A DNA stretch of 64,000 nt from Atractiella rhizophila (lineage: Eukaryota). The position numbers were made by a program, and so were the translations under genes. The stretch is from the NCBI GenBank assembly GCA_021432655.1, contig MU271212.1, positions 62,001 to 126,000 on the forward strand. The letters run 5' to 3'. The notes below the pieces were generated by a model that saw only the letters and a list, made by a program, of their open reading frames with translations, was not told the DNA's origin and did not search any database. Shown piece after piece: positions 15,310 through 47,094 of the stretch. Position 1 is the stretch's first letter. Every line of letters starts with the position of its first letter.

Positions 15310-15317
15310 TATATAAA
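15310..15317 (+). promoter_or_regulatory. Candidate TATA box
   Basis: TATATAAA about 40 nt upstream of the ATG at 15353. Confidence 0.4.
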
Positions 15318-15352
15318 CCCCATCTCTGTTTGAAGACTCAACAGCAGCCAGC

Positions 15353-17669: not shown

Positions 17670-18341
17670 TCAAAGGCAAGCCTGCTCTAGGTACTTTATA
17701 GTTTCTTTCAACTTCCTTTCTCGCTCGCTCAAGTGAAAGGGAGACATCCAGCTCTCTTCCTTCTCTTCAATTGCTACATGCACTCCCATTTCTTCGTCCC
17801 CCGGTTTCTGCCAAATCAGGCATTCGTTTACTCGTGCTGCTTTCACTGTTGTTGCACTATCGAAAGACTCGTGAGTCGGATCGACATCAATAATCCTTTC
17901 TGCCATGAGGCATCAAGGTCAGTGCCACTTGATAAAGAGGGAACTCGGATGCTTACCTGCATCAAGAGCACCAGTCACGGCATCGAACCAAATGCGGACC
18001 CAGTGCACCTTCATCTTTGCTGCCCTCTCCCTCACCTCCTTTTGGTGGATCCTTGGCAATCCTTCGTAATGTTCCAACGGCCACAGATCAAAAAGTCTTC
18101 CGAGCTCAAGCGAATAGAACAAAGAAAGATCCCATCGCTTCTCCCGTAGATACCCTCTCGCGCATTCATAGAGCGCGAAAGCGCGAAGGAGAGGATGGAG
18201 AGACATTCGGATGAGGAGAGTGAAGGCGTAAACGAATTCGTTCTCTTCTTCATATGACTGAAGACTTTCATATATGCCTAACTCAAACAGATCAAGAGGC
18301 TCGACATTGGGAAATGCAGGCAATTGCTTTCGGTGAACCAT
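17670..18341 (-). CDS. Hypothetical protein (two exons)
   Basis: The 140-aa and 78-aa ORFs join in frame through a GTAAGC..CTGAC..GGCAG intron (GALDA/ERIIDVD). Confidence 0.45.
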
Positions 18342-19149
18342 CGTCGAATCCTGCTTTCGACTTCTTCAGAAAGATATGGCAATAAGTAGCTGCTGTCCAC
18401 AGGTTTTTGAGCTGAATGTCTCCAGAACTGGAACAGCGGAGCTAATTCGAAGAAAGCGCCGGGATCAATATTAACAATTATTAAAGCTCATTGTTGTCCC
18501 CAGTTGCCCTTGTTGCTGCTGACATTGGGTTCTGATTCTAGAATCCCATTTGGAATATTTTTCTGCTTGTTGTCCATTGTCCATTGTCTTCATGAATGAA
18601 CTAAGAGGGACTTCGCAAACGACCGTCGTCCTCATCGTGTTCGTATCGACAGAAGGCAGTGCATGCGAACGACTGTGGGCGAAAGCGTCAATCTTGTTAA
18701 AGGTTGCTAATCTGATTCAGCTTTGGGAGTGGGAGTTTGTAAGCAAAGGAAAGTGGGTTCGCCACTACGGAGGAGCCGATTTCGAGTTAAGTTTCTAGGT
18801 TGTCTACGGGCCCAAGGATGGATGCAACAGAGGGAAAGGAAGACAGATTTTGCTCCACAGACAGAATTGGTCCTCTTCACATGGGACAGTAGACGGTCGA
18901 AAGATATATTGTGTAATACTGAGCATTGCATGTGTATATTGCACGAGCTCAAATGCAGGATTAAAGAATGAATGTCCGTTCGTGGAGTATGAGTGAGTAT
19001 GTGATATGCTATGTGAACGAATTTCTATGATTCCAATCTCTGATCGAAAGAGTTCCAAGGGATGAATATGTACGCAAACAGAAGCTGAAGTGTCCACTCA
19101 AAATCGGAGCAATAGGCATGGAGATGCTCGATATTCCAAGTCATGCCAA

Positions 19150-20688
19150 TCAGAAGAGCGCGGCGACGCCAGCTGCGAAAAGGGAAGTCATGGCTAGAAC
19201 GCCTCCGTATCTCTTCGCAGCTGACGAATCCTGGTCCTGTGCGGCTGGCGCATTGGACGATGCCGAAGTCGAGGAAGAGCTCGAGTTCCCCTCCTGCGTG
19301 CTCGCGACCTCATCGTCGCTCGTGTTGGCCATGTCCTTTCCACTGGCTGCCGTCACTCCAGAAGCGGTGAATCCGACGGTGGTCCACTTCGCGTTCGGTT
19401 GAACGGTGTACGTGTTCCTCTTACCAGTCAAGGCTTGGATGGCGTAGATCTTTCCAGCAGAAGTCAACTGGACGAGGTGAAGAGGGGAGGCGGCGTACGT
19501 GGCCAGTTTGTCTTTCGAGGTGGGGGCAGGGAGGATTTGGGTCGTGTTGATGAATGGAACGATACCTTCTGGCGCACCGGCGGAAGATCCAGCGACGGCA
19601 GGAGAGGTCCAATGCGTCAGGACGTAGGTGGAAGAGAAGTCATCGGGGATGAAGGCGAGTTGGCGTTGTGCCACTCCGGCTTTTTGGTAGAATGAGGTCG
19701 CTTGGCCGTGCGTGGATGGGAAGGTTTTGGTGCTGTCGAGTGTCTTGAAAGCTTGCGCCTTCTTCTGGAATGACGAAACTGTCGATACGTTATCAACCCT
19801 AGAGATACTAGGTGGTGGAGGAGAACGCACAGTGGACAACAAAGATATCTGCTTGGCCAGCCGAGGCGTCTCCACCAAAGATCATAAGATGGTTCTGGGC
19901 CTCCGCCATTGTAGCTTTAAAGTTCTGTTGGCCTATTAGCTCACGTATAGCGCCTCCAACAAAGGACTAACCGCTTTCTTTGTTCCACTGCTTCCCTGGG
20001 TGACCCATTTGAGCGTCTTGGTGGTCGCCTTCCCACTAAGGCTAGAGAAATCTAAGCTCTTCATCGTCGTCCCGTCCAAGCTGAAGAACACATCGGTGTC
20101 ATGATCCAAGATCGTGGCGGTGTTCGCGAAGTTGGGAATGTTGGAAGAGGAGACCTTTTGAGTGGACCAGGTGTTGGATGAGGGATTGAAGACGTAGGCT
20201 GTTGCTTGATTCGATTTGTCGGCTCCAAGGATGTAAATCAAATCTTTGGATTGGGAGAGGAAGCAGGAAACGGAGGTTCCGGTGAACGGCCTGCACAGCA
20301 CAATGAATAGATGTGAAGGTTGTCTGGATCATGAACTCACGGTCGTCCTTTGGTCGAGAGGGTCTTGGGAGTAGGAGCTGGACCATCCGAAAATAGCGCG
20401 GTCGCCAAAATGAAAATCGGTGAAGGTTAGACGGAGAGAGAAGAAAAGGACATGTTAGGTACTTTGAGGCAGAGAAAGGAAAACGAACAAGTCCAGCTAG
20501 CAGCTGCTCCCAAGTTGACGTCCTTGCTTCCACCAAAGACGTAGAGATTGCTCTCAGCGTCACTGCATCGGCAGCCCATTAGTACGAAGGAGGAAAGCAA
20601 GAATAGGAATGCACAAGACCACACAACTGCTCAGCCCTCTCACGGAGGCAGTCAAGGCAGAGAATAAAAGAAGGGCAGGGAGAATCAT
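19150..20688 (-). CDS. Secreted, probably GPI-anchored, kelch/beta-propeller-like cell-surface protein
   Basis: Signal peptide MILPALLLFSALTASVRG; kelch-like LYVFGG and AYVFNPSSNTWSTQ; Ser/Thr-rich stalk; hydrophobic C-terminus SSAAKRYGGVLAMTSLFAAGVAALF. Confidence 0.7.
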
Positions 20689-21135
20689 TTTCAGTTAGTT
20701 GGTTGCTCAGTAAAGAATGTAGGCCGACCAGGATTCTATCTAGGTCGATAGCTGGAAGAGTTGGGAGATATTGATGGGAGGTATTCGCTGAAGTAGGGTG
20801 AGGTATTCGTCGTTGCAGACTTATGCAGTGTGAAACACCTAAATTTATAAGTTCGGTTCCGGAAATAAGGACGCTCCCCAAAACAAGGCAGGAGTACTCG
20901 TCACATCCAAAATGGGAAGCACCTTGGGACTCTATTCTCCATTGGATGCGTAATAACTATGCTTGCTCTCTTTCCCCTGAAGCGCAGTGCCGCAGTGTGA
21001 GGAGAATACACGTTCGGTGAGGCGCGGGTTGGCGCATTAAAATTCCATCCGTGCGCGGACCCACGACCAACCACACAACTGAGCAACGACGAGAACTTCA
21101 ACTAAAAGCCAGCTCCAGAGCCTCGTTGGATCATA

Positions 21136-21714
21136 ATGGCACCACTCCTACGCCCACCCACCCGAATACCAGCCTCAGCATCTATTCTCCGCGCATTCCA
21201 ACAACCACTGCCCCCGTCTTATGCCAGCTTCCGACTGTCGTGTCTCAAGCTCATTCTCGTTTACAACCCAAAACATGACAGCTGGTACGTTAGTTCTTCT
21301 GCAACCAATTTCTTCTCATTGAATGTTCTTGGTTGGCTTCACAGTAAGCAACTCGAAAACTTTATAACCAACCCGAAATTCCTCGTCACCATTGCAAAAC
21401 AATATCCAGAAGTCGAATTCATCGTTCGTCCACGGACGAAGAGCATCACTCCATTCCTACGCGGCGTGTACTGTTCGTTGTCTCTCCTCACCTCTCAAAA
21501 CTGCTTCCTAACCGTTTCATTGTGCGGCACAGCTAACAATCGGACCAAGATGATTCAGGTTGGCAGGCTTGACCTGATGGGTATCAGGGAGAAGGTCAAG
21601 CTGATATTGGACTCGAGCGGTGATCAGCTCAAGGACTACGATAGGGCTACAGTGGAGAGTCAAACACCGAGCGTTAGGGGCATATGGAGTCCATTTCATG
21701 AGGAGTCTGCATGA
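21136..21714 (+). CDS. MRPL51: Mitochondrial ribosomal protein mL43 (MrpL51), copy A
   Basis: Motifs AKQYPEVEFIVRPR..PFLRGVY, LILDSSG, VESQTPSVRGIWSPFH; introns at 21285-21344 and 21473-21532. Confidence 0.88.
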   Translation: MAPLLRPPTRIPASASILRAFQQPLPPSYASFRLSCLKLILVYNPKHDSWYVSSSATNFFSLNVLGWLHSKQLENFITNPKFLVTIAKQYPEVEFIVRPRTKSITPFLRGVYCSLSLLTSQNCFLTVSLCGTANNRTKMIQVGRLDLMGIREKVKLILDSSGDQLKDYDRATVESQTPSVRGIWSPFHEESA

Positions 21715-21830
21715 TGACGTTTATTGCAGTTACCCGTTTGCTGTTTAATAACTTCTAATCAAAGTCGTTGTCCATTCATTCCATTGGCATCCGTCAAAGT
21801 CGAATTCCCGCAAAGTGTTTGGTGCCATTG

Positions 21831-24107
21831 TTAGCTCTTTCGTCTCATCCCAAACATAGACCTTCCACCACTCTTCGTAGCCTTAAGGTCCTTTTGATCC
21901 GCCACACTCTGCTCCATAATCTCGACCTCCTTCCTCTCAAACTCCTCCTTGACTCTTTCTCTCCATTGATCTTCCTTGACAGCCTTCCACCCGACAGCCG
22001 CTAGCCCTTTCATAGCAATAACTGCGCTCTGGTGGGCTTCAACACTCTTCGCCGCCTCTGCGAACTCTGGAGTGTGGTTAGCCGCCTTGGCCGGTATCAG
22101 GAAGCCCGCCTGCAATCCCGGTAAGGCGTAGCTGACGTCTCCGAAGTCTGTACTCGCTGATCCTTCCGTTGTAATAGAGACGGGGATGTCGTGGCGAGCA
22201 GCAAGGTAGGCTTTGTACTCTTCGCAGAGAGTGTAGTTGAGCTTCGTGTCTGACCACACCACATCAGCATCAGCATCTACTTCCAGTCCTCCAACACATA
22301 GAGGTAGTAGAATAGTAATCTCACCTTTATACTGCATCGCCCACCTGCTCTCAACTTGACATCCGCTCCCGTTCTCCCCTGCCTTTACACACCCTTCCAC
22401 CTTAGCCTTCAACTTCTCGAGCTCCTTCCAAGTCGGAGCCCTCATCCCGATGTCTATCCTCGCCTTCCCTGGAATGATGTTCTGGACGAATGGCGCCCCT
22501 TCCGGACTCTTGATGACGGAGTGCACTCGATGAGTAGGCGGAAGCTGTTGGCGCAACATGGCGAGCGAATTGTACGTCGTCACGGCCGCGTCGAGCGCGT
22601 TCACTCCTTCCCATGGCGCTAAAGCTATTTCATACCATCCCTTAGAACTTTTCACTGGACGGAGACAGGAAGAGAACACACCAGCATGTGCTGTGTGTCC
22701 AGTAAAATTAGAGACCAGTGTGGCCACTGTGGGTCCCGTCAGCGTTGTGGATGAAAGAGAGAAAAAGTGACTTTACCAGCTAACGACCCTCCTATACCAG
22801 CTACCTTCGGATCGCCTTGTCCTGGATGAGCCATGAGGCACCTTTTCACCATCAGTCCTCATCTTTACAAGTAGGGGGCTGCCGCACAAGTCCATGTCCT
22901 CATACTCCCCTCTTTCAAGCAGCTTGACTTTTCCACCGCCTCCTTCTTCAGCTACATCATGTGTATCAGACGGGGATGCAAGGAATATGAGGACTATAAC
23001 CTACCTGGTGTTCCTAGCAAGATACAAGATCCAGGAACGCCGAATCTTGCCATAGTGCTCGAGAGAGCGAGGAAGGCTCCGACGCCAACGATGGCGATAA
23101 GATTATGGCCTTTTCACCATCCCATTCAATAGGTCACCCCACCTCGCCAGGGAGGAGAAGGAAGATCTCGAGCCTACCGCATGCATGTCCAATACCAGGT
23201 AGCGCATCCTGTGGTATGAAGAATATCAATATCCAGTCATTCGTGGGGAGACGTGAAAAAGTACCATCTCGCTATTGAATCCAACGCGACCACCCTTTCC
23301 TCCTTCAGTTGGCAAGGCGTCGCTCTTGTATACCACTTTCCAGGCTGTTTCGAGGCCACCGGTGCCCGTGGTTATTGTGTACCCCTTTTTATTCCCCACT
23401 ATGGATCAAACATGGTTAGTTGCAGGCGTTGGAAGAAGACATAGAAGACTAGTGGGGGGTAATGAGTTGTCTGGAGGTTAACTAGCATGGTTAATTTTCT
23501 CTCTCCTACGTCTCAGAGTATCTATCATCTTCCATTTCCTACGGATAGTTGACGGTAATTTCATCATGAAAGGGTATAGGCTGCTCATGATGATTGCGTC
23601 CTATGCATCTCCAGGAGGTTTCTCGATGTCAAGAACTTGGCGTCCACCTGTGGCATAGAATCGCCAGACTATTGATAGATATGGCTTATACCTCAAAATT
23701 CGAACAAACAAGGGTCGATGACAGACATTGTTGAATCTGTCATGCTGCTTCAAATACCCAGCACAAGAATGTAAAGGATACAAAAGCGAAAAGAGTTCAA
23801 GTATCGAACGGAAGCCAAAAAAATTAAAATGACCAGACACACCTTGTTTCTTCATAAACTCGACCATCGCCTTCGCCGTCTTCCTCTCCTGCCATCTCGT
23901 CTCTTTATATCCATGAATCTTAAGCGACAAATTTCTCAGAGCCGGAGAAAGCTGATCCACCGCCTTCTCCAAGGCTTCTACCTGACCAAGAGGGCTCAAA
24001 GTCTCGTAAATCTTCGGAGTGTAGGACGGTGGTTCCTCTGGTGCTGCCTTCTCGTCGAGAGATGGTAGGGAACTTGAACGACGGAAAGCTGAGAAACAAG
24101 ACGGCAT
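21831..24107 (-). CDS. M20 family peptidase/amidohydrolase (PM20D2/Acy1L2-like), copy A
   Basis: Motifs FNSEMDALPGIGHACGHNLIA, LLGTPAEEGGGGKV, APWEGVNALDA, GSASTDFGDVSY, ANHTPEF; 444-nt first intron at 23399-23842. Confidence 0.92.
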
Positions 24108-25058
24108 ATCGAACTTTTCGACAAAAATCAACGAGGGAGGGGAGCCTGTACTGGTGAGCCTGAGTTCTTGAGGGACAATAAAGTAATCAAGCACGCAGGA
24201 ATGCTGGTCAATATCGCGTCATTTCTCCGACCACGGGAATGCGCCAATAAATACGAGCAAACATGTCAAAAAAATTTCCAGACGACCAGTCAGGACAAGT
24301 CGAGACGACGAGAGAGGCGAGAAGAGGCATTGGAGGTTTGTCAGGAGGATCGTTCATTTAACACTAATCGTTGCACAGTGTATGCAATGACTAGCTAAAT
24401 AAGCTGATTTGGTGAGCTTTTGTCAACATTTTATCAAAATTGGTGAGGAGAAGATGAGCAATATACGTCTTGCTGCATATCCTTCCGAGAACCTCCCAGC
24501 TCTTGAGTTGGCTAAACTGAGGATACTCCTATCTAGACTCGCGTCTGATCTTACCTGATAACATTTTTCCTTTTCCAAGACTTGATGAACTGATTTCTTT
24601 TGTGTCAATAGGAAAGAATTTATGGTTTAGACAGGGCACAGTCTGCGTGTCAGCAATCTGAGTGGAGTGTATAAAGGAACAACAATTGTATGGTAGCAAA
24701 ATGTTTGATGCAATATGTGTGAGCAAGGTTGAAAAATTCAGCTCTTAAATTGTGGCTGTCTCATGTCTCATGACTTCCCTCGAACAGCACACATCAGCAT
24801 GCTAAACTCGAATTTCTGTTTGTTCTGTCCAAACCATAATAAATATCGTACTGACAGCTTGCCGTGAAGCTTGCCTGAAGGATTGGAGTCACCCATCTTT
24901 CGCAGACCTTTCACTGAGTACTCAGTGGGTGGATGACTCCTCCTCGACCGCATTTACTCTTACTCTCCCAAACCCACCAGAGTGTTTCCAGGCGTTTCTT
25001 TCTGTTATAATTACCCTCTCCCGCCACTTCCTTGTCTCTACTCTTCTCTTTACGATTC

Positions 25059-25512
25059 ATGATGAAACGATCAAGCACCCCTCCACCAAACTTTCCAAAC
25101 AACAGCTCTCTTCTCCACACTCTGGTTTCATCCCCTTCTTCGCTGGTAAAACCAAGACGACGTGTCTCCTCCCACCCAGTCTTTCCCTCAGCACTTCCCT
25201 CTTTCGAGTCCATCACACGCAGCGCAAGCGCTCAAGCAACCATACTCAAACCGCAGCGAGAGCCAGAACGCACACAAACCCTTGAGGAAGAACTGGACGA
25301 AATATTGGCTGAGGCTGAGGTGCCAGCCAGCGTCCATCGGCGGAGCAGCAGTACCACGTCACAAGGAGACTCCGAGCCCCGTTCACGCTCCAGCTCAACT
25401 TCAACACGGCAAGTGACGAAGAAACCGGCTGAGGCGTTCGAACTCTTCCGAGCGATCGAGAAGAAGGATGTGATGCGCATCATGGAGATTCGAGACACCG
25501 CTTTCCCTCTCC
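25059..25512 (+). CDS. Conserved fungal hypothetical protein, copy A, 5' part; the remainder lies in the mirror block
   Basis: MMKRSSTPPPNFPNN..AFELFRAIEKKDVMRIMEIRDTAFPL continues in frame as LLSLKSGLSPLTYSMRIG only when 30993->25513 is read backwards. Confidence 0.75.
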
Positions 25513-28500
25513 GAGGGAAAAGCGGCTGGAGAGAGACGGTCATCTCCGATTGACAAAGAAGCTGAAGCAAGAAAGTAGATTGGTTAGTTGGCTGGCTGGC
25601 TTTGAGCTAACAGCAAGCTTTCCCAGGCTATCTCAGCACAGAAAAATATGGAAAGCGAGAGTGATGGATGGATGCCGAACTCGGAGTCTCGAAATAAGGG
25701 AAGGATTAATGTAGGTGCTTAGAGTTGCACTCAGAGAAAGGAGGGAGGGTAAAACACAAGGGGCCGGCCGCACTCGACGTGTTCTGCTGTGGACTGACGA
25801 CGAAAGGGCGTCGGGCTGCGTCAGGAGGTGCCGGTGGTGGTACAGTCTGGATCTAGCAAGATTGAAAGAGAGGAGGGAAGCTTGTAGGAGGAGGGCGGTT
25901 CCTGGGGTTTGCCGGTGGAAACCCTTAAAGCGAGTCGTTGTTGTTCAAGGAGTCGTTTACTACCTGCACTTGGACGAGTTGGTTTACGCCTAGGTTTTGG
26001 AGTTCGAAGTCCTCGTTTAGGAGGAAGTTGTCAAGGTCCGGGTCGTTCGAAAGCTCGTCTACGTCATAGTTGTCGTAGTCGTCGTTGTCAACCCCTTACC
26101 CCCCTCTGGCCAACAGCCGCCGCGATCCCTTGCTTCACAATGCCTAAGGCCCAACCCCTATGTCTCAGGCAGTAACATACCCTCCCCTAAACCTGTCGTT
26201 GTTCTTCTCCTATACCTGAATGTTGTCGTCAACTACTACGAGGCTGAACGGCTGGTTGTTGTCGTAGTTGTCGTTATAGGGAGAGTCCAGGGCGTTTGGC
26301 GTAAGCAGTTGAGGGCGAGCAAGAGACTAGTCGTCGTTTAGTCGAGAGGCTGGTCGAGAGCAGACGGAGGAAAGGAGAGGTGTGCAGGTCCTCTGCCTCC
26401 TTAGGTTCGACCTGTGTAGGAGCGACGAGTGCGAGAACGCTCTTTCCCTTCTGTTTTGTGCTACGGCTAGAGGAGACCACGCTTGCTGCTAGTCAAGGTC
26501 AGCAAGAGGAGGAAGCCAGGGGAGCAAGTTGTCAGGGTTTTCAGACCTCCAGGGTTGTTGGGAAACTCTCGTCCTGTGGTAGCTGCGTCGAGGAGCTGAT
26601 TGAGAAAGGAGAGCAGTAGCCCTTCAGTCTGTTCGTTGCCCTAGTAATGGGGGCGAGACCAGAATAGAGCTGGTCCGCTTCTTACCGGTTGAAGGGGTCA
26701 CAGGGTTGGCCTGCTACCTCGCTAGTTCTTCGTCCAGGGTTCCCAGTGCCACGCTTGCTTTCGGCGAAGGTGAAGACACCTGCTGAACTAGAGCGGGTGA
26801 GTTTTAGCCTTCCGTCGAGTAGCTGTGAGGGTAAGCTTCCTTAGCTTGAGAAGGCCGACAAGAAGTCTCCTTTCGTAGAGGAGGCTATTCTCCCTCCTCC
26901 ATGCCAGACCTCGCTCGTGCTGCTTGTGCTCGAGCAAGCTCTCGAACTCGCTGGTCAAGGTCTTATCCCTATGAATACTCCAGCTCTTGCTCGTCCTCGT
27001 TAGACTCTAGCAATCCGGTTTATCTCGGTTCCCGGAGTGACGACGGAACAGACCGCGACCTTGCTCTGTCGCAGGCCGATCAACCCCCTTACCCTATGGA
27101 GTCCCTAACTTGAACTTGGAGTTGCGCTACTACCGAGTCGTTTTGCGCTACCCTCCTCCTAACCCGCCTGAGCCTTCAGGACACGTCGGATTATACGGCT
27201 ACTACTACTTAGGCAAGCGCAGCCGAAAGTCGGGTTGGCGTGGACGAAAGTTAGGAGTAGTCCATCAGGAGGGATGGTGGTGAGTTCGAGGACAATTCGG
27301 CGGGAGGGGAGGAGTCGGAGTTGGCCACCTCTTCTCTCGCGGTTACGAGGAGGTTAGAGTATTTGTCCTATGTAGCTTGTGTCAGTAGCAGTAAGCTGTT
27401 GGATCTCCTGGTCGACTTCTATTCCTGGAAGGAGAATCTTTGAAACGCCGAGCACCACCACCTTTCTCCTAACCTCCCTCGCCACCTAACTTTGACTGCT
27501 GCTTATACCTGGCTTTGCGCCGACGCTTGGAATCTTCGGGAAGGGGGTTCTAATTATCCTGAGGCAGCGGACCTTCGCCACAGTCGTGCGGATGGTCGCG
27601 CAGACGAAGACCTTCACCCTCCTCCTTGCCCTTACCCTCACCTTTCTCCTGCGGCTCGGGTGGACCGCCACCACCAGCCCCTTCACCTTCAACCTCCTCG
27701 TTCTACTTCTCGGGCTGACTCCCTTCTGTTCTATTATCTAAGAAAACTAACCTAGGCTTACTGAGACATTGTAGAACAGGGTAATCAGAAGAAAGAAAAG
27801 AAAGGAAGAAAGAGAAAAGAAAAAGTAGTAGGAAAGCTCTTCAAGGTGTTTTGGTAAAGGGGAAATATGGACGAGAAACGAAGTCAACTCTCCAACACTA
27901 ACATCGTTACCTGCAACTACTTAGGCAAAGAGTCTCAATGGCAGGGTAGTTGAACTTTCGATACCTGAACCCACCAACTAACAATTCAACTAACCACGCT
28001 TAAACAAACAGTAAGAAATGAAGAGACAGAGGGCTAACTAAGCCAAAGCCCTCGTTATACAGAACATTCAGGAGATAAGTTGGAACGAGTTTGAAACGTC
28101 GTCGTGACTGCCATAGCCTACGCTGTCTAAATGTGAGTCTATGTAAGACCAGAATACCTAAGGTTATAGTAAAAGTGGTCCGAGTGTCTCCACTTCGACG
28201 AGTCATATACGCTCCTCCTCTCCTTCTCGTACTAACCCTTAACTCCCTTCTACTACTACTCCACCTCTAACTATCTTTCTTCTTTTAACGGAACTAATCT
28301 CCCGGCTTTGACCTGGTCGACGACAATCTCCACTTCTTCCCACTACTACACCAATTCTGAACTCGTTTCTTTCGACGGTTTGTGTTACCATACAAACAGA
28401 TGTTAAGGCTTAAACTACACTCGTCACTGTATTTTACGTAAGTCCGTGGACTCCAACTATAAAACATTCAACTCACACGGAGAAAGAGTGATGAAAAGCT

Positions 28501-30993
28501 CTTTTAGAAGCAAACTTCATTAATGGCCTTGAGTGTCTATATTTTTACATAGTTTTTCGTTACCGCGATTTACAACTGGAGACTGACAGGTTGACAGGTC
28601 TGTTTGACGTTGCGTATCTTCCGCCTTTAATTCCAAAACGGGATGGGAACCTGTATCGTGTCTTATCCCTCACGCGCGCAACAGCGCCCCTACGCGTCCC
28701 CGTGAAGGGCGCACCAGTACGCCTCATTAACGCGTTGCTCAGTTGCTGGTTGTCGTTGTTGACGGAGGGGAGTTATAGTGTGGCGAGCTTGAGCGTTCGC
28801 AAAAATTCCGGGCCTCTCGTGACATTGTCGTAAGGGTGGGTTGCAGTACAGGAAACGGCTGGAACTTGCTCCCCGAGGGTACGGAGCACGATGACAGCGT
28901 GGACGACCAAACAGAAGAACGTTAAGACGGATTAAGACGTTCTTATTATCTTGACTACCAATTAAAACAGATCTAAGAGCACCAAGTTTCCGGAACGAAC
29001 TGGCATAAAGGTATGTCTGCATGTTCTAGCTTCGGTTACAATGTCCGAACTTAGCCCACGAACTCGAGTACTTCTGTTCCCCTCCACTACTGAATGCGCA
29101 AGCCAACATTCGGGTAATGAGCTTTGAATACGTTCTAGTAACTAAACAAAACAATCTTGACTGAACTCGCTTCGGTGCTTTCTTCAATAATTCCAAAGAA
29201 ATGGCCTACACTTCCGAGAGAGTTGGGTAGGCTCACACGCAGGGAAAGTCTTTCTTCTCTTTTATCTCGAGTTAAGGAAACAAACATCGCCGGTCTCCGC
29301 TTGTTCCGTCGAGTTCTGAAAGTCCGACGACAGCCTGCCAAATTGTTCCACGTCTCTTCACGCCGGCTTAAGGTCGCCTCCTTCCACCTACTCTCAGCAC
29401 GCCGCGAGCTTCCTTGTTGTTCAAGAGGGTAGGGAGGAAGGAGAAGTAGCATACAAAAAGTCAAAGAACTTCAGTGCCATGTTAAACTGTGATTTGATAC
29501 CGCTTATTCATCGTCTGGAAGTAGTGGTTCCCTTCTCGTTCACATACAAAGTGCAGACAAGGATACACGCGGCTTCGCCTACAACTAGTCTATGACGGCT
29601 TATCTGTTGTGGTCTAAGTCTACCTGAATCAGAGTCTACGACTGTAGCTTAAAGTTCTTGCTCACTAACTTCTTGCTCTCCAAACAGGGGAGTGAAAGAA
29701 AAGAAATTGGGAATGGCTGTCCACAAACTTACATCCTTCGCGACTCCGTATAACTTAGACTTCACGTGCTTCATTTGCTCTAGAAGGCCCTAAATCCGTG
29801 TTACCACGTAGTCGTCGTCTCGTACTAACCATATAAGAAAGAGTGTCACTATTATAATCCTCACGAATAGCAGTACATCTATTGTAACTCAGTTTGCAAA
29901 TGAGGCAGCTCGTTCTGTGGTCACCACGGCAGCTTCTTAACCTAGTTCGAGTGCTTATGGTCTTCTTCCGCCCCTCCGCCTACGAAACGGAGGAGTAGTA
30001 AAAGTAGTAGCAATAACGCCAACAAGACGAGCGACATACAGAAAAGAACAGTAGAAGACCCTATATTTTGACTATGTACTATTACATGTCCAAAACCGTA
30101 CTAAACATCCCATATTATGTCTCATCTACAGTGAGGCCACCAATTACCTGTTGTGACTCGGATAAGCAATATGTTGTGGCTGTTGCATTGATTACACCCT
30201 TAGGCCCTCTCTGTATTTCCCCCCTTAGGGAAGGAGGTAACGGAAGAGATTCTTAGGTTGGGCTGAAGTTCGGAGAGACGAAAGAGCGCTTTGGGTTATA
30301 AGAAGGACAGGTTGGATACGAAGGAGATTCATAGAGAAACTAGATTTGTCGTTCTTCTTCGTATGTGTACAAGGTAGGAGAGGAGGTAGAGCTGGTAGGT
30401 AAAGAAGGAGCGAGGGGGAGAGCGGGGAGGTCAGTATATGGTGGTGAGGGATTTCGAGTCGGTGTGGGAGAGTAGGGAGCGCTTGACGGTTTCTCCGTTG
30501 CTCACTAGGGGACGGGGTAGGCGGAGACTTCGATTGAAGGTATCGCGGTTGTGCTGTTACAGCTGCGAGCGCAATCGCTCTTTAAGTCACTGCCTTCGCT
30601 GCAACTCCTCAAGCAGGGATAGAAAGAACAGCTCTCTAACACTGCGTTTGAACATGTAGAAGCACGCCCGCAGAACCTGACCGGCAAACCAACCTTTGTC
30701 TCGACTCTAGCGTTGAACCTGCTTCCAACTCCTGTACTACTGGTGAACTTCTATCCTACTCTATTCTAGCCATTAGAACAAGACTTCAGGCTTGCGTTAT
30801 CGGCGGAAATTTAAGCAGGAATAGGGAAAGTTGTTTGGCTAGTAGAGGGGTCATCCTACGCGTTCGAGAAGTAGCGATTTCAACAACTGAGCAGAGCTAT
30901 AACGTGGCTGGTTATTCTACCACTAGAGCGATACGCTAAAAGGTTATGCGTAGCTCATACATTCACCCCTCTCAGGTCTAAACTCCCTATCCT
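25513..30993. other. Mirror (reversed, uncomplemented) block equivalent to ~37767-43178; probable assembly artefact
   Basis: 30980->30901 read backwards gives ATCTGGACTCTCCCCACTTACATACTCGATGCG.. which matches 37766 onward; 25513 GAGGGAAAAGCGGCTGGAGAGAGACGG is the mirror of ~43153-43178. Confidence 0.97.
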
Positions 30994-31018
30994 NNNNNNN
31001 NNNNNNNNNNNNNNNNNN
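30994..31018. other. Assembly gap (25 N)
   Basis: Run of N exactly at the copy A / copy B junction. Confidence 1.
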
Positions 31019-31376
31019 ATGAACTCACGGTCGTCCTTTGGTCGAGAGGGTCTTGGGAGTAGGAGCTGGACCATCCGAAAATAGCGCGGTCGCCAAAATG
31101 AAAATCGGTGAAGGTTAGACGGAGAGAGAAGAAAAGGACATGTTAGGTACTTTGAGGCAGAGAAAGGAAAACGAACAAGTCCAGCTAGCAGCTGCTCCCA
31201 AGTTGACATCCTTGCTTCCACCAAAGACGTAGAGATTGCTCTCAGCGTCACTGCATCGGTAGCACATTAGTACGAAGGAGGAAAGCAAGAATAGGAACGC
31301 ACAAGACCACACAACTGCTCAGCCCTCTCACGGAGGCAGTCAAGGCAGAGAATAAAAGAAGGGCAGGGAGAATCAT
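31019..31376 (-). CDS. 5' part of the secreted kelch-like gene, copy B, truncated by the gap
   Basis: Near-identical to 20331-20688. Confidence 0.7.
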
Positions 31377-31822
31377 TTTCAGTTAGTTGGTTGCTCAGTA
31401 AAGAATGTAGGCCGACCAGGATTCTATCTAGGTCGATAGCTGGAAGAGTTGGGAGATATTGATGGGAGGTATTCGCTGAGGTAGGGTGAGATATTCGTCG
31501 TTGCAGACTTATGCAGTGTGAAACACCTAAATTTATAAGTTCGGTTCCGGAAATAAGGACGCTCCCCCAAAACAAGGCAGGAGTACTCGTCACATCCATA
31601 ATGGGAAGCACCTTGGGACTCTATTCTCCATTGGATGCGTAATAACTATGTTTGCTCTCTTTCCCCTGAAGCGCAGTGCCGCAGTGTGAAGAGGATACAC
31701 GTTCGGTGAGGCGCGGGTTGGCGCATTAAAATTCCATCCGTGCGCGGACCCACGACCAACCACACACTGAGCAACGACCAGAACTTCAACTAAAAGCCGC
31801 TCCAGAGCCTCGTTGGATCATA

Positions 31823-32401
31823 ATGGCACCACTCCTACGCCCACCCACACGAATACCAGCCTCAGCATCTATTCTCCGCGCATTCCAACAACCACTGCCC
31901 CCGTCTTATGCCAGCTTCCGACTGTCGTGTCTCAAGCTCATTCTCGTTTATAACCCAAAACATGACAGCTGGTACGTTAGTTCTTCTGCAACCAATTTCT
32001 TCTCATTGAATGTTCTTGGTTGGCTTCACAGTAAGCAACTCGAAAACTTTATAACCAACCCGAAATTCCTCGTCACCATTGCAAAACAATATCCAGAAGT
32101 CGAATTCATCGTTCGCCCGCGGACCAAGAGCATCACTCCATTCCTACGCGGCGTGTACTGTTCGTTGTCTCTCCTCACCTCTCAAAACTGCTTCCTAACC
32201 GTTTCATTGTGCGGCACAGCTAACAATCGGACCAAGATGATTCAGGTTGGCAGGCTTGACCTGATGGGTATCAGGGAGAAGGTCAAGCTGATATTGGACT
32301 CGAGCGGTGATCAGCTCAAGGACTACGATAGGGCTACAGTAGAGAGTCAAACACCGAGTGTTAGGGGCATCTGGAGCCCATTTCATGAGGAGTCTGCATG
32401 A
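31823..32401 (+). CDS. MRPL51: Mitochondrial ribosomal protein mL43 (MrpL51), copy B
   Basis: Same translation as 21136-21714, with synonymous SNPs. Confidence 0.88.
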   Translation: MAPLLRPPTRIPASASILRAFQQPLPPSYASFRLSCLKLILVYNPKHDSWYVSSSATNFFSLNVLGWLHSKQLENFITNPKFLVTIAKQYPEVEFIVRPRTKSITPFLRGVYCSLSLLTSQNCFLTVSLCGTANNRTKMIQVGRLDLMGIREKVKLILDSSGDQLKDYDRATVESQTPSVRGIWSPFHEESA

Positions 32402-32517
32402 CGATGTTTATTGCAGTTACCCGTTTGCTTTTTAATAACTTCTAATCAAAGTCGTTGTCCATTCATTCCATTGCCATCCGTAAAAGTCAAATTCCCGTAA
32501 AGTGTTTGGTGTCATGG

Positions 32518-34846
32518 TTAGCTCTTTCGTCTCATCCCAAACATCGACCTTCCACCACTCTTTGTAGCCTTAAAGTCCTTTTGATCCGCCACGCTCTGCT
32601 CCATAATCTCGACCTCCTTCCTCTCAAACTCCTCCTTGACTTTTTCTCTCCATTGATCTTCCTTGACAGCCTTCCACCCGACAGCCGCTAACCCTTTCAT
32701 AGCAACAACTGCGCTCTGGTGGGCTTCAACGCTCTTCGCCGCCTCTGCGAACTCTGGAGTGTGGTTAGCCGCCTTGGCTGGTATCAGGAAGCCGGCTTGT
32801 AATCCCGGTAAGGCGTAGCTGACGTCTCCAAAGTCTGTACTCGCTGATCCTTCCGTTGTAATAGAGACGGGGATGTCGTGACGAGCAGCAAGGTAGGCTT
32901 TGTACTCTTCGCAAAGAGTGTAGTTGAGCTTGGTGTCTGACCACACCACATCAGCATCAGCATTTACTTCCAGTCTTTCATCACATAGAGGTAGTAGAAT
33001 AGTAATCTCACCTTTATACTGCATCGCCCACCTGCTCTCAACTTGACACCCGCTCCCATTCTCCCCTGCCTTTACACACCCTTCCACCTTAACCTTCAAC
33101 TTCTCGAGCTCCTTCCAAGTCGGAGCCCTCATCCCGATGTCTATCCTCGCCTTCCCTGGAATGATGTTCTGGACGAATGGCGCCCCTTCCGGACTCTTGA
33201 TGACGGAGTGCACTCGATGAGTAGGCGGAAGCTGTTGGCGCAACATGGCGAGCGAATTGTACGTCGTCACGGCCGCGTCGAGTGCGTTCACTCCTTCCCA
33301 TGGCGCTAAAGCTATTTCGTACTATCCCTTAGAACTTTTCAGTTGACGGAGACAGGAAGAGAACGCACCAGCATGTGCTGTGTGTCCAGTAAAATTAGAG
33401 ACCAGTGTGGCCACTGTGGGTCCCGTCAGCGTTGTGGATGAAAGAAAGAAAAAGAGACTTTACCAGCTAACGACCCTCCTATACCAGCTACCTTCGGATC
33501 GCCTTGTCCTGGATGAGCCATGAGGCACCTTTTCACCATCAGTCCTCATCTTTACAAGTAGGGGGCTGCCGCACAAGTCCATGTCCTCATACTCCCCTCT
33601 TTCAAGCAGCTTGACTTTTCCACCGCCTCCTTCTTCAGCTACATCATGTGTATCAGACGGGGATGCAAGGAATATGAGGACTATAACCTACCTGGTGTTC
33701 CTAGCAAGATACAAGATCCAGGAACGCCGAATCTTGCCATGGTGCTCGAGAGAGCGAGGAAGGCTCCGACGCCAACGATGGCGATAAGATTATGACCTTT
33801 TCACCATCCAATCCAATAGGTCACCCTACCTCGCCAGGGAGGGAAGGAAGATATCGAGCATACCGCATGCATGTCCAATACCAGGAAGCGCATCCTTGTA
33901 TTCGCAATATCAATATCAAGTTCGCGAGGAGACATGAAAAAGTACCATCTCGCTATTGAATCCAACGCGACCGCCCTTCCCTCCTTCAGCTGGCAGGGCG
34001 TCGCTCTTGTATACCACTTTCCAGGCTGTTTCGAGGCCACCAGTGCCCGTTGTTATTGTGTACCCCTTTTTATTCCCCACTGTGGATCAAGCATGGTTAG
34101 TTGCAGACGCTAGGAGAAGACTAGTGAGGGTAATGAGTTGTCTGGAGGTTAGCTAGCATAGTTAATTTTCTCTCTCCTACGTCTCAGAGTATCTATCATC
34201 TCCCATTTCCTACGGATAGTTGACGGCAATTTCATCATGAAAGGGTATAGGCTGCTCATGATGATTGCGTCCTGTGCATCTCCAGGAGGTTTCTCGATGT
34301 CAAGAACTTGGCCTCCGCTAGCGGCATAGAATCGCCAGACTATTGATAGATATGGCTTATTCCTCAAAATTCAAACAAGGGTTGATGAGAGACCCTGTGA
34401 GCAACTTAAACCTGTCATGCTGCTGCAAATACACAGTACAAGAATGTAAAGGATATAAAACCGAAAAGAGTTCAAGTATCGAACGGAAGCCAAAAAGAGT
34501 TCAAGTATCGAACGGAAGCCAAAAAGAGTTCAAGTATCGAACGGAAGCCAAAAAACAAACAAACAAAATGACCAGACACACCTTGTTTCTTCATAAACTC
34601 GACCATCGCCTTCGATGTCTTCCTCTCCTGCCATCTCGTCTCTTTATATCCATGAATCTTAAGCGACAAATGTCTCAGAGCCGGAGAAAGCTGATCCACC
34701 GCCTTCTCCAAGGCTTCTACCTGACCAAGAGGGCTCAAAGTCTCGTAAATCTTTGGAGTGTAGGACGGTGGTTCCTCTGGTGCTGCCTTCTCGTCGAGAG
34801 ATGGTAGGGAACTTGAACGACGGAAAGCTGAGAAACAAGACGGCAT
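32518..34846 (-). CDS. M20 peptidase/amidohydrolase, copy B
   Basis: Same motifs and exons as copy A with a few substitutions (e.g. KAK/KVK, VIA/VVA). Confidence 0.9.
34464..34549. repeat. 29-bp minisatellite, 3 units, in M20 intron 1
   Basis: (A)AAAAGAGTTCAAGTATCGAACGGAAGCC x3; a single unit in the other two copies. Confidence 0.95.
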
Positions 34847-35315
34847 ATCGAACTTTTCGACAAAAATCAACGAGGGAGGGGAGCCTGTACTGGTGAGCCT
34901 GAGTTCTTGAGGGACAATAAAGTAATAACGCACGCAGGAACGCTTGGTCAATATCGCGTCATTTCTCCGACCACGGGAATGCGCCAATAAATACGAGCAA
35001 ACATGTCAACAAAAAATTTCCAGATGACCACGACCAGTCAGGAGGATGAGAGAGACGAGAAGAGGCATTGGAGGTTTGTCAGGAGGATCGTTCATTTACC
35101 ACTAATTCTTGCCCAGAGTATGCGGTGACTAGCTAAATAAGCTGATTTGGTGAGCTTTTGTCAACATTTTATCAAAATTGGTGAGGAGAAGATGAGCAAT
35201 ATACGTCTTGCTGCATATCCTTCCGAGAACCTCCCAGCTCTTGAGTTGGCTAAACTGAGGATACTCCTATCTAGACTCGCGTCTGATCTTACCTGATAAC
35301 ATTTTTCCTTTTCCA

Positions 35316-36626
35316 ACCCTCCTATACCAGCTACCTTCGGATCGCCTTGTCCTGGATGAGCCATGAGGCACCTTTTCACCATCAGTCCTCATCTTTACAA
35401 GTAGGGGGCTGCCGCACAAGTCCATGTCCTCATACTCCCCTCTTTCAAGCAGCTTGACTTTTCCACCTCCTCCTTCTTCAGCTACATCATGTGTATCAGA
35501 CGGGGATGCAAGGAATATGAGGACTATAACCTACCTGGTGTTCCTAGCAAGATACAAGATCCAGGAACGCCGAATCTTGCCATGGTGCTCGAGAGAGCGA
35601 GGAAGGCTCCGACGCCAACGATGGCGATAAGATTATGGCCTTTTCACCATCCCATGAAATAGGTCACCTTACCTCGCCAGGGAGGGGAAGGAAGATATCG
35701 AGCATACCGCATGCATGTCCAATACCAGGAAGCGCATCCTTGTATGAACAATATCAATATCAAGTCATTCGCGAGGAGACATGAAAAAGTACCATCTCGC
35801 TATTGAATCCAACGCGACCACCCTTTCCTCCTTCAGTTGGCAAGGCGTCGCTCTTGTATACCACTTTCCAGGCTGTTTCGAGGCCACCGGTGCCCGTGGT
35901 TATTGTGTACCCCTTTTTATTACCCACTATGGATCAAGGATGGTTAGTTGCAGGCTTTGGAAGAAGACTAGTGGGGGGTAATGAGTTGTCTGGAGGTAAA
36001 CTAGCATGGTTAATTTTCTCTCTCCTACGTCTCAGAGTATCTATCATCTCCCATTTCCTACGGATAGTTGACGGTAATTTCATCATGAAAGGGTATAGGC
36101 TGCTCATGATGATTGCGTCCTGTGCATCTCCAGGAGGTTTCTCGATGTCAAGAACTTGGCCTCCGCCAGTGGCATAGAATCGCCAGACTATTGATAGATA
36201 TGGCTTATACCTCAAAATTCGAACAAACAAGGGTCGATGACAGACATTGTTGAATCTGTCATGCTGCTTCAAATACCCAGCACAAGAATGTAAAGGATAC
36301 AAAAGCGAAAAGAGTTCAAGTATCGAACGGAAGCCAAAAAAAATAAAATGACCAGACACACCTTGTTTCTTCATAAACTCGACCATCGCCTTCGCCGTCT
36401 TCCTCTCCCGCCATCTCGTCTCTTTATATCCATGAATCTTAAGCGACAAATTTCTCAGAGCCGGAGAAAGCTGATCCACCGCCTTCTCCAAGGCTTCTAC
36501 CTGACCAAGAGGGCTCGAAGTCTCGTAAATCTTTGGAGTGTAGGACGGTGGTTCCTCTGGTGCTGCCTTCTCGTCGAGAGATGGTAGGGAACTTGAACGA
36601 CGGAAAGCTGAGAAACAAGACGGCAT
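35316..36626 (-). pseudogene. Third, 3'-truncated copy of the M20 peptidase (5' exons only)
   Basis: At 35316 the upstream sequence (..TTTTCCTTTTCCA) jumps to ACCCTCCTATACCAG (=33473 / ~22786), which is mid-gene. Confidence 0.85.
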
Positions 36627-37565
36627 ATCGAACTTTTCGACAAAAATCAACGAGGGAGGGGAGCCTGTACTGGTGAGCCTGAGTTCTTGAGGGACAATAA
36701 AGTAATAACGCACGCAGGAACGCTTGGTCAATATCGCGTCATTTCTCCGACCACGGGAATGCGCCAATAAATACGAGCAAACATGTCAACAAAAAATTTC
36801 CAGATGACCACGACCAGTCAGGAGGATGAGAGAGACGAGAAGAGGCATTGGAGGTTTGTCAGGAGGATCGTTCATTTACCACTAATTCTTGCCCAGAGTA
36901 TGCGGTGACTAGCTAAATAAGCTGATTTGGTGAGCTTTTGTCAACATTTTATCAAAATTGGTGAGGAGAAGATGAGCAATATACGTCTTGCTGCATATCC
37001 TTCCGAGAACCTCCCAGCTCTTGAGTTGGCTAAACTGAGGATACTCCTATCTAGACTCGCGTCTGATCTTACCTGATAACATTTTTCCTTTTCCAAGACT
37101 TGATGAACTGATTTCTTTGTGTCAATAGGAAAGAATTTGTGGTTTAGACAGGGCACAGTCTGCGTGTCCGCATCCTGAGTGGAGTGTATAAAGGAACAAC
37201 AATTGTATGGTAGCAAAATGTTTGATGCAATATGTGTGAGTAAGGTTGAAAAATTCAGCGGCTAATTGTGGCTGCCTCATGTCTTCCCTCGAACAGCACA
37301 CAATCAGCATGCTGAACTGGAATTTCTGTTTGTGCGTCCAAACCGTAACAATTATCGTAGTGACTGCTTGCCGTGAAGCTTGCCTGAAGAATTGGAGTCA
37401 CCCATCTTTCGCAGACCTTTCACTAAGTACTCAGTGGGTGGATGACTCCTCCTCGACCGCATTTACTCTTACTCTCCCAAACCCACCAGAGTGTTTCCAG
37501 GCGACTCCTTCTGTTATATTACCCTCTCCCGCCACTTCCTTGTCTCTACTCGTCTCTTTACGTTC

Positions 37566-38498
37566 ATGATGAAACGATCAAGCACGCCTCCACCAAACTT
37601 TCCAAACAACAGCTCTCTTCTCCACAATCTGGCATCGTCCCCTTCTTCGCTGGTAAAACCAAGACGACGTGTCTCCTCCCACCCAGTCTTTCCATCAGCA
37701 CTTCCCTCTTTCGAGTCCATCACACGCAGCGCAAGCGCTCAAGCAACCATACTCAAACCGCAGCGATCTGGACTCTCCCCACTTACATACTCGATGCGTA
37801 TTGGAAAATCGCATAGCGAGATCACCATCTTATTGGTCGGTGCAATATCGAGACGAGTCAACAACTTTAGCGATGAAGAGCTTGCGCATCCTACTGGGGA
37901 GATGATCGGTTTGTTGAAAGGGATAAGGACGAATTTAAAGGCGGCTATTGCGTTCGGACTTCAGAACAAGATTACCGATCTTATCTCATCCTATCTTCAA
38001 GTGGTCATCATGTCCTCAACCTTCGTCCAAGTTGCGATCTCAGGTCTGTTCCCAACCAAACGGCCAGTCCAAGACGCCCGCACGAAGATGTACAAGTTTG
38101 CGTCACAATCTCTCGACAAGAAAGATAGGGACGAACTCCTCAACGTCGCTTCCGTCACTGAATTTCTCGCTAACGCGAGCGTCGACATTGTCGTCTTGGC
38201 GCTATGGAAGCTAGCTTCAGAGGCGGATGGGACAGCCGATCACTCGTTGCCTCTTTGGCAATTCGCGAGGGATGAGAGGGTGTGACTGAGCTTTAGGGAG
38301 TGGTGGTATATGACTGGAGGGGCGAGAGGCGGAGCGAGGAAGAAATGGATGGTCGAGATGGAGGAGAGGATGGAACATGTGTATGCTTCTTCTTGCTGTT
38401 TAGATCAAAGAGATACTTAGAGGAAGCATAGGTTGGACAGGAAGAATATTGGGTTTCGCGAGAAAGCAGAGAGGCTTGAAGTCGGGTTGGATTCTTAG
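37566..38498 (+). pseudogene. Conserved fungal hypothetical protein, copy B, with an in-frame 267-nt deletion and a premature TGA
   Basis: PQR joins directly to SGLSP, 89 codons fewer than copy A; TGA at 38283-38285 where the mirror copy has TGG; last exon VLDRKNIGFREKAERLEVGLDS* after intron 38381-38431. Confidence 0.7.
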
Positions 38499-38643
38499 AG
38501 AAGGCAATGGAGGAAGGGATTCCCCCCTTTATGTCTCTCCCGGATTCCCACATTAGTTACGTTGTCGGTGTTGTATAACGAATAGGCTCAGTGTTGTCCA
38601 TTAACCACCGGAGTGACATCTACTCTGTATTATACCCTACAAA

Positions 38644-39900
38644 TCATGCCAAAACCTGTACATTATCATGTATCAGTTTTATATCCCAGAAGATGACAAG
38701 AAAAGACATACAGCGAGCAGAACAACCGCAATAACGATGATGAAAATGATGAGGAGGCAAAGCATCCGCCTCCCCGCCTTCTTCTGGTATTCGTGAGCTT
38801 GATCCAATTCTTCGACGGCACCACTGGTGTCTTGCTCGACGGAGTAAACGTTTGACTCAATGTTATCTACATGACGATAAGCACTCCTAATATTATCACT
38901 GTGAGAAAGAATATACCAATCATGCTCTGCTGCTGATGCACCATCGTGCCTAAATCCCGGAAGATCTCGTTTACTTCGTGCACTTCAGATTCAATATGCC
39001 TCAGCGCTTCCTACATTCAAACACCTGTCGGTAAGGGTTAAAGAAAAGAAAGTGAGGGGACAAACCTCTCGTTCTTCAATCACTCGTTCTTGAAATTCGA
39101 TGTCAGCATCTGAGACTAAGTCCATCTGAATCTGGTGTTGTCTATTCGGCAGTATCTGATCAACATCCGCTTCGGCGCACATAGGAACAGACGTGAAACA
39201 TACACTTGCTCTTCCCTTGGTGATGAAGGTCTGCTACTTATTCGCCATAGTTTAGTGTCAAATTGTACCGTGACTTCAAGAAACTGAAAAACATACGATG
39301 AAGAGGAAGGAGGGATGGGAGAACTTGTTGTTCCTTCGAGCGCCGCACGACTCTCATCCACCTTCCTCCGCTGGAATTCGGCCGCACTTCTCTGCACCTT
39401 GTTAAACCGTCCGACAGCAGCCTGAAAGTCTTGAGCTGCCTTGTTCGCCTCTGGCCGCTACAAACAGAGGAAGTTGAGCTCTATTTTCTCTTCTTTCTGA
39501 AAGGGACGCACACTCGGATGGGTTGAGAGAGCCTTCACATCCGGTAAAGAAACCTTAATAACCTCTTTCGTGGCTTCGCTCAAGTCAGTTCTAACAAAAC
39601 AAATCAATGATCTTGCATAAGTTTCGAGTAATAGGCTCACAACCGAACGCGTAAGTCATCACCTCCCCTTGTCTTCATGAGCTCAAGCACCCGATTCAAG
39701 CCTGTAACATTGGCTTCGATCTTGTACGTCTGTATGGAAATACGGTCAAGCAAGGCCTTTGAACCACGAGAATCTAGACAAAATTAACCATCAGTTCTAT
39801 TATTCTTGCAGAAATAGGCAGAATTGCAAGAAGACAAACCAGCAGGTGCGACAGTAGCACGAGGCATGGGAGCCCCTCGTTCAAGGTCGGCAAAGGACAT
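38644..39900 (-). CDS. PEP12: Endosomal/vacuolar syntaxin (Qa-SNARE, Pep12/Vam3/Syntaxin-7 like)
   Basis: MSFADLERG start; Habc region DFQAAVGRFNKVQRSAAEFQR; SNARE motif FQERVIEERE..HEVNEIFRDLGTMVHQQQSMI/DNIESNV..EELDQAHEYQKK; C-terminal TM segment MLCLLIIFIIVIAVVLLA. Confidence 0.85.
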
Positions 39901-46803: not shown

Positions 46804-47094
46804 CGTTGAAAGTTATGCTCCTCAATATGGGAGATGAAATCTGCTATTTTCAGTTGGAAGAAGAGGCATGACTGACTCCCTTCCCAAAAGCAATAGCCCG
46901 GAGAATGTGGTCGCATTGCTGCCTACTGATGACTCAACAAGAAAGCCAATTTTAGACTAAGGTTAAGCGGATCGTAGTGTGAAACTAGAACTCCAAAACA
47001 ACGAGAGAACGACGAATTTACACGAATCGGCCACTTCCCTCTATATCTTGACCTTACAGCGCACTAGTCTGCCTTCCAGAGCAGCAGCAGCAAG

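Follow-up and report, generated by a model that had tools for sequence, protein, structure and literature searches.

A 5.5-kb block of the Atractiella rhizophila assembly is reversed without complementing, almost certainly by assembly software

The window analysed here, a 64-kb stretch of the Atractiella rhizophila assembly, carries one locus twice, as copies A and B on the two sides of a 25-N scaffold gap (Table 1). By direct BLAST, 20331-24578 matches 31019-35316 with 94.5% identity, and 22786-25259 matches 35316-37766 with 95.6%. The first base of contig 2 corresponds to position 20331, and the span 20331-25259 matches 31019-37766 directly. Every gene is annotated twice across the gap, for instance P0001/P0002, and the open reading frames 21136-21714 and 31823-32401 form such a pair. 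The locus also contains a 1.8-kb unit in three versions (copy A, copy B unit 1 and copy B unit 2), whose identities to one another are 91.0, 96.4 and 93.0%. Between the forward part of copy A and the gap lies the 5.5-kb block that is the subject of this study. As previously described, it directly adjoins the N run.

Table 1. Coordinates of the features at the locus, numbered from the first letter of the window.
Feature	Position	Strand	Description
Copy A, correctly written part (end of contig 1)	20331..25512	+	Colinear with the first part of contig 2
BT69DRAFT_1346711 (P0002), first exon	25062..25538	+	tblastn residues 1-159, 100%; extends 26 bases into the block
False junction between correct contig and mirror block	25512..25513	.	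Contigs of X1, X2 and X3 (records 3, 13, 18) cease to fit after 25512
Mirror block	25513..30993	.	5481 bp of genuine sequence, reversed without complementing; true first base 30993, true last base 25513
S/Q-rich 650-aa open frame	25796..27745	. (minus sense of the restored sequence)	Visible only with the block reversed
BT69DRAFT_1346711, last two exons	26704..27000	+	tblastn residues 160-242, identical except for one 16-codon intron; mirrored DNA, meaningless
25-N scaffold gap	30994..31018	.	N run adjoining the true start of the block; really negative, as the contigs overlap
Copy B (start of contig 2)	31019..43178	+	Same locus anew, probably from the other haplotype; contains the block's normally written partner (37766-43178)
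Syntaxin/SNARE gene, copy B	38679..39457	-	Pfam match; copy-A counterpart hidden in the mirror block

The preliminary description of this sequence had claimed that the block matches copy B as a mirror image. The whole window was reversed without complementing and searched by BLASTN against the window as deposited (E ≤ 1e-5). This search returned two matches with their reciprocals and nothing else. Read from 28136 down to 25513, the block aligns to 40565-43178 with 99.01% identity over 2625 columns (14 mismatches, 7 gaps, 4597 bits, E = 0), and reading from 30980 down to 28393 it aligns to 37766-40349 with 96.08% identity over 2605 columns (64 mismatches, 18 gaps, 4192 bits, E = 0). The remaining 58.5 kb of the reversed window served as a chance control and gave zero matches at the same threshold. 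Normal self-BLAST of the window found no partner for the block on either strand. The mirror claim is thus borne out, with a partner interval that ends at 43178 as given before and starts at 37766 rather than 37767. At 99.0 and 96.1% identity the block is not a literal copy of its partner and carries variants of its own, as had also been noted. The bulk of this divergence lies around the middle, where 28137-28392 aligns poorly with 40350-40564. The last 13 letters of the deposited block (30981-30993) and bases 25260-25512 make up a 267-bp in-frame segment (89 codons) which is absent from copy B.

The orientation of the block is also visible in its composition. We calculated a k-mer reversal log-odds score trained only on positions 1-19000 and 44000-62737. 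The score is negative in all eight windows within the block and positive in each of the 36 windows that lie in A and B outside the block. Moreover, every 1-kb window beyond 25501-30501 scores positive, including those beside a second 25-N gap at 62738-62762, so that no further mirrored block was detected in the window. The frequencies of TA and AT are 0.117 and 0.070 in the block and 0.070 and 0.114 in copy B, and GA/AG and CA/AC are swapped likewise. As deposited, the longest frame in the block encodes 118 aa (among frames of at least 100 aa), while frames of 650, 319 and 221 aa appear when it is read backwards. Both the direction-sensitive composition and the coding signal of the block are those of reversed DNA.

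Restoring the orientation brings back three genes as well as an in-frame exon. The frame starting with the ATG at 25062 encodes 163 aa as deposited and 372 aa with the block reversed, and 233 of the 238 residues that align with the copy-B gene model are identical, which supports the in-frame continuation past 25512 suggested earlier. Near-length homologues of this junction gene were found in two of 838 candidates, both being models of the A. rhizophila genome itself. The expected Q-rich gene is present as an S/Q-rich frame of 650 aa. Its copy-B version is divided over two frames (40951-42096 and 41910-42896) by a 1-bp difference at 26711/41988, the intact frame belonging to the mirrored copy. 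Several of the 1-bp differences between A and B, this one included, sit in short homopolymers. A hidden Pep12-like gene had likewise been proposed, and the call holds at the level of a syntaxin/SNARE gene, whose copy-B counterpart contains the Pfam SNARE domain PF05739 (E 1.4e-13, 51 bits; cut-off 26.8); Syntaxin_2 (PF14523, E 4.9e-5) reaches 23.8 bits, under its cut-off of 26.5. The Pfam search assigned no family to the junction gene or the S/Q-rich frames.

The public annotation was made on the faulty sequence and missed three genes. It also contains at least one chimeric NCBI model, BT69DRAFT_1346711, of which about 92 of 242 residues (about 38%), at the C-terminal end, are translated from mirrored DNA. 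Because this model is translated from the deposited orientation, the error predates both annotation and release. It was already in the public A. rhizophila assembly at the time of gene calling and was not added to the window later.

Further information on the junction was obtained from four public sequencing runs (X1-X4), in the form of Logan contigs built from their reads; X1, X2 and X3 together represent at least two samples. X3 and X4 are RNA-like, with joints that have CT..AC ends, and X3 has spliced joints. In each of X1, X2 and X3, one contig agrees with the deposit through 25512 and departs exactly there, continuing for at least 255 letters (median length); records 3, 13 and 18 reach about 1370, 1513 and 442 letters past this point. 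In all three runs the continuation, TCCTATCCCTCAAATCTGGACTCTCCCCAC, agrees in 30 of 30 letters with the reversed block, 30993 down to 30964. Since its first 13 letters are absent from copy B, the departing contigs are not copy-B contigs. One of them, record 18 of X3, is transcript-like and passes 25512 into normally oriented sequence. Within the block (25632-30941), depth was 0 in 15 of 15 bins in all four runs, although missing cover proves nothing in Logan contigs; the flanking bins (22800-25631 and 30942-33400) had depth in 15 of 15 cases in X1-X3 and in 13 of 15 in X4. Judged by the loose ends at 25512, and with this cover not counted as evidence, the read test proposed for 25512/25513 contradicts the deposited junction and yields the re-reversed continuation in its place. 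The true genome after 25512 consists of the block from 30993 back to 25513.

We conclude that the block is almost certainly an artefact of assembly software, written backwards without complementing. The read contigs, the k-mer direction, the restored frames and the position of the seam agree with the software orientation error that had been suspected. That the mirror copy is real DNA, arising through a process which reverses 5.5 kb on the same strand without complementing it, has the deposited sequence itself and the block's own variants relative to copy B in its favour. However, the contigs of three runs contradict the junction and show the normally oriented continuation, the transcript-like contig of X3 enters that same sequence, and turning the block round recovers three genes along with an in-frame exon. 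To our knowledge, template-directed polymerases and recombination yield reverse complements and never plain reversals. We therefore consider real mirror DNA so improbable as to deserve almost no weight. A reversal by hand or by later file manipulation, whether by the depositor, the database or the preparer of the window, would equally account for a reversal that is exact and in place, and the sequence would look the same after a script bug as after manual editing. But the gene model P0002 was predicted from DNA that was already reversed, which places the event before annotation and release, and an extent from a contig-internal point to the gap better suits automated gap extension; manipulation outside the assembly pipeline is thus very improbable. 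The in-silico manipulation offered as an alternative in the preliminary description is narrowed accordingly, since introduction into the window at a later stage conflicts with a public model that already translates the block.

Two other origins were considered and rejected. A biological inversion or inverted repeat should match on the minus strand, where no match of the block exists, and plain reversal alone aligns. An origin in sequencing chemistry, with reads emitted 3'->5', would on general knowledge still require placement by software, and the read contigs are normally oriented.

The arrangement of copies A and B bears on how the block may have arisen. The copies are colinear at both sides of the gap, and both sequence types occur in the reads, as in a false duplication: of the 31 read variants listed on copy A, 28 are copy-B letters, and A-type contigs (records 9, 12 and 15) occur as well, with 0-1 differences. 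Unmerged haplotype overlaps at contig ends are known to give false duplications in heterozygous assemblies, and A and B are probably two haplotypes stacked across the scaffold gap. The colinear copies of about 95% identity flanking the gap and the genes annotated twice resemble such cases; the difference is that half of one copy is mirrored here, so that ordinary alignment detects just 5 kb of the false duplicate of about 11 kb. The alternative, that a single genome truly carries a segmental or tandem duplication, gains some support from the three versions of the 1.8-kb unit, which imply one real duplication event or more. Against it, the X2 sequence preceding 31019 resembles that before 20331, to which its loose end aligns (20303-20329), and not the end of copy A, indicating that no duplication boundary lies at 31019. 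Some A-specific contigs of X2 (records 9 and 12) also show about half the depth of the others (137 and 108 versus 170-305), a weak argument, as these are contig word-depths and not copy numbers. We regard a true duplication of A and B as unlikely.

A gap-extension history of the block seems most likely. In a heterozygous region, two overlapping contigs would have been set end to end with a gap, copy A ending contig 1 and copy B beginning contig 2. Gap closing would then have lengthened contig 1 by 5481 bases into the gap and, when no join was found, a minimal gap of 25 N would have been kept. The extension would have needed reverse-complementing into scaffold orientation, and string reversal alone may have been applied. 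In support of this, the block spans from a contig-internal point exactly to the scaffold gap. Outside its divergent middle, the block is about 99% identical to copy B, compared with 94.5-95.6% for the forward copy A. Being closer to copy B than forward copy A is, it is not explained by an extension of pure haplotype A alone. The flank of the second 25-N gap is not mirrored, and such a bug, if it is one, did not act at every gap.

This history has a partial parallel in PBJelly, for which a run counts as a gap from 25 N upwards, and passages of whose description treat flank extension and 'overfilled' gaps in negative-gap settings (English et al. 2012, PMC3504050). Like an overfilled gap there, the present contig end would have been extended without closure of a negative gap, leaving the minimal 25 N; unlike PBJelly as described, the extension is reversed and uncomplemented, a case that does not figure in those passages (PMC3504050). 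An attribution to a PBJelly-type overfilled gap would find agreement only in the 25-N size and the negative-gap geometry. A gap size of 25 N is not specific to one tool. A literature search found no published description of this genome's assembly or of PBJelly being applied to it, and a search by title and abstract found no literature on reversed, uncomplemented assembly errors.

The block can be compared with two further kinds of sequence. A biological inverted duplication or palindrome also has a nearby second copy on the kilobase scale with the opposite reading direction; the arms of a real one match as reverse complements, whereas the block matches by plain reversal only. In regulatory genomics, reversed uncomplemented DNA serves as a deliberate scrambled control (for example 10.1101/2021.03.18.435942 and 10.1101/2025.02.04.636130). 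There the string operation is identical, keeping composition while destroying motifs and genes, but such controls are designed and declared, and the block is an error that the reference genome contains undeclared.

The finding brings no new biology of A. rhizophila; its value lies in data quality, and the record needs correction. The public reference assembly of the species carries 5.5 kb of sequence written backwards, which hides three real genes of copy A, and the locus is probably falsely duplicated across the gap. It is possible, though we put it forward only tentatively, that a systematic code fault reverses some gap or flank extensions, here and perhaps in other assemblies processed alike. 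If so, such blocks would go unseen by BLAST, synteny and six-frame tools except where a second copy lay nearby, and would feed nonsense models into protein databases. A second copy is not needed for the strand-symmetric k-mer reversal score, which separated the block cleanly here and is usable as an assembly screen.

When the whole window was reversed without complementing and compared with the window itself by BLASTN (E ≤ 1e-5), the block at 25513–30993 (5481 bp) found its partner in two matches. Read from 28136 down to 25513, it matched 40565–43178 at 99.01% over 2625 columns (14 mismatches, 7 gaps, E = 0), and from 30980 down to 28393 it matched 37766–40349 at 96.08% over 2605 columns (64 mismatches, 18 gaps, E = 0). 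The rest of the reversed 64-kb window gave zero matches at this threshold, which excludes chance as the explanation, and the ordinary self-comparison of the window, on both strands, yielded no partner for the block. The preliminary description of a plain reversal adjoining a 25-N gap is thus borne out. Its partner, proposed as 37767–43178, stands as a match but begins at 37766; the bases 30981–30993 (13 nt) have no counterpart in copy B (31019–43178, the start of contig 2), and the middle of the block, 28137–28392, which holds most of the divergence, aligns poorly with 40350–40564. The mirror observation is therefore confirmed, and the block as deposited does not reflect the actual genome.

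Reading direction was also scored with a strand-symmetric k-mer model, trained only on 1–19000 and 44000–62737, as the log-odds of forward versus reversed in one-kb windows. All eight windows inside the block were negative (k = 4: mean −49.7), while the 36 windows of copy B and of copy A (20331–30993, the end of contig 1) outside the block were all positive (mean +42.7). No other part of the window scored as reversed, including the flanks of its second gap. The dinucleotides TA and AT occur at 0.117 and 0.070 in the block, compared with 0.070 and 0.114 in the partner. Among stop-to-stop frames of at least 100 aa, the longest in the block as deposited is 118 aa, and the block read backwards contains frames of 650, 319 and 221 aa.

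Eight public runs contain part of 21000–30993, a query of which 45% is forward-written; the two best cover 0.30 and 0.28 of the sampled words. Contigs of four runs (X1–X4, all Logan contigs) were aligned on 22800–33400 at 90% likeness. In X1, X2 and X3, one contig each (lengths 1838, 2147 and 914) fits the deposit to 25512 and then departs from it. The first 30 letters beyond this point are the same in the three runs, TCCTATCCCTCAAATCTGGACTCTCCCCAC, and equal the block read backwards from 30993, letter for letter. Since the first 13 of these letters are specific to copy A, the contigs are not misplaced copy-B sequence. The reads thus contradict the junction 25512/25513 as deposited, which supports the software artefact suggested earlier. 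X3 and X4 contain numerous short skips bounded by CT..AC and therefore behave like RNA, so that a transcript-like contig also crosses 25512 in normal orientation. No contig aligned to the block itself, although with Logan contigs missing cover counts neither way. At 25332, the deposit has G and all four runs have A; at 25079, it has C and X1–X3 have G, with no contig carrying the deposited letter. These are possible base errors of the deposit or strain differences.

Reversing the block in place lengthens the frame that starts with the ATG at 25062 from 163 to 372 aa, in agreement with the in-frame continuation described previously. The longer product is identical to the copy-B protein at 233 of 238 aligned positions and has 89 residues more; the copy-B frame (37491–38285) is 100% identical to NCBI 'hypothetical protein BT69DRAFT_1381759 [Atractiella rhizophila]'. 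Another model from this genome, BT69DRAFT_1346711 (242 aa), is the copy-A version; it spans the false junction and takes its last ~92 residues from mirrored DNA. Annotation therefore came after the reversal, and introduction of the reversal during preparation of the window is ruled out, as this model had already been called on reversed sequence. The Q-rich gene expected from the reversal likewise appears, as an S- and Q-rich frame of 650 aa (27745 to 25796 of the deposit, read backwards). In copy B (40951–42896, minus strand) this gene occupies two separate frames (381 and 328 aa), and a 1-bp difference between the copies lies within it at 26711/41988; copy B may contain a frameshift error or a short intron here, or be a pseudogene allele. 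Judged by its domain matches, a further copy-B gene is a syntaxin gene.

Coordinates of gaps, repeat units, gene-model segments and domain matches
Feature	Position	Strand	Remark
25-N run	30994–31018		adjoins block end
25-N run	62738–62762		second gap in window
1.8-kb tandem units of copy B	33473–35316 and 35316–37096		93% identical
BT69DRAFT_1346711, residues 1–159	25062–25538		tblastn
BT69DRAFT_1346711, residues 160–242	26704–27000		tblastn; one intron between last two exons
SNARE domain PF05739	38679–38984 (copy B)	minus	E 1.4e-13
Syntaxin_2	39116–39457 (copy B)	minus	sub-threshold: E 4.9e-5, 23.8 bits vs cut-off 26.5

Direct self-matches join 20331–24578 to 31019–35316 (94.5%) and 22786–25259 to 35316–37766 (95.6%). 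Once the block is turned back to its proper order, copies A and B are colinear throughout, with two exceptions. One is a 1.8-kb unit, single in A (22786–24578) and tandem in B; its three versions show pairwise likeness of 91.0, 96.4 and 93.0%, and the repeat may reflect a genuine duplication on one haplotype, or a further stacking error that left no N gap. The other is a 267-bp in-frame segment (89 codons) found in A only, consisting of 25260–25512 and the first 13–14 letters of the backwards-read block, and missing in copy B at 37766. Read contigs with copy-B letters just upstream (24916–25187) still contain this segment, and its deletion in copy B may in turn be due to assembly or to a haplotype switch. 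Copy A before the gap and copy B after it are two versions of one locus overlapping by ~11–12 kb, so the gap is really a negative gap. No duplication was found across the second gap by self-match within the 1.2 kb of window to its right. Elsewhere, 6703–8513 and 10147–11981 form a direct repeat (74.8% identity over ~1.87 kb), probably two paralogous genes.

The 33 variants listed within 22800–25332, from a table with 96 further rows, were compared with copy B except for 25272 and 25332 in the A-only segment. At 28 of these 31 places the variant agrees with copy B unit 2, and contigs with 0–1 differences from copy A were also present, so the runs contain both versions. The 30 letters that precede 31019 in X2 gave no match at ≤ 3 mismatches and aligned to copy A 20303–20329 with a score of 23/30; homology thus extends left of the first base of contig 2. 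This is compatible with two haplotypes or with a larger duplicate, but not with a tandem duplication that has its boundary at 31019. The X2 contig depths, 108–137 for A-specific contigs versus 170–305 for others, weakly hint at haplotypes too. It is quite likely that copies A and B are stacked haplotypes.

The reversed string starts inside contig 1 and stops exactly at the scaffold gap, as an in-place reversal, beside a negative gap in a probably heterozygous region. A long-read gap closer could have extended the contig flank, failed to close and left a minimal gap. A local assembly on the opposite strand needs reverse-complementing; if only the reversal were applied and complementing omitted, exactly the pattern of the block would result. 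We consider this gap-extension history somewhat favored, and regard PBJelly as a possible responsible program, at slightly less than even odds. The paper on PBJelly sets 25 N as the minimum size of a gap and reports 'overfilled' gaps, 44% of them in one genome being negative gaps (PMC3504050). The block shares with this setting its negative gap and 25-N remnant. No published account of the assembly of the Atractiella rhizophila genome was found, nor, among the matches listed, a paper on reversed, uncomplemented assembly blocks.

Through the duplication, genes can be annotated twice, as the pairs 21136–21714/31823–32401 and 21831–22727/32518–33291; for one pair a weak match to L51_S25_CI-B8 (mitochondrial ribosomal protein) stays below the Pfam cut-off, and the other has an M20_dimer peptidase match. 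The gene count of the assembly is inflated at this locus. The practical value of the finding lies in correcting the public record, and the k-mer direction test offers an inexpensive screen for errors of this kind, which are invisible to standard tools.
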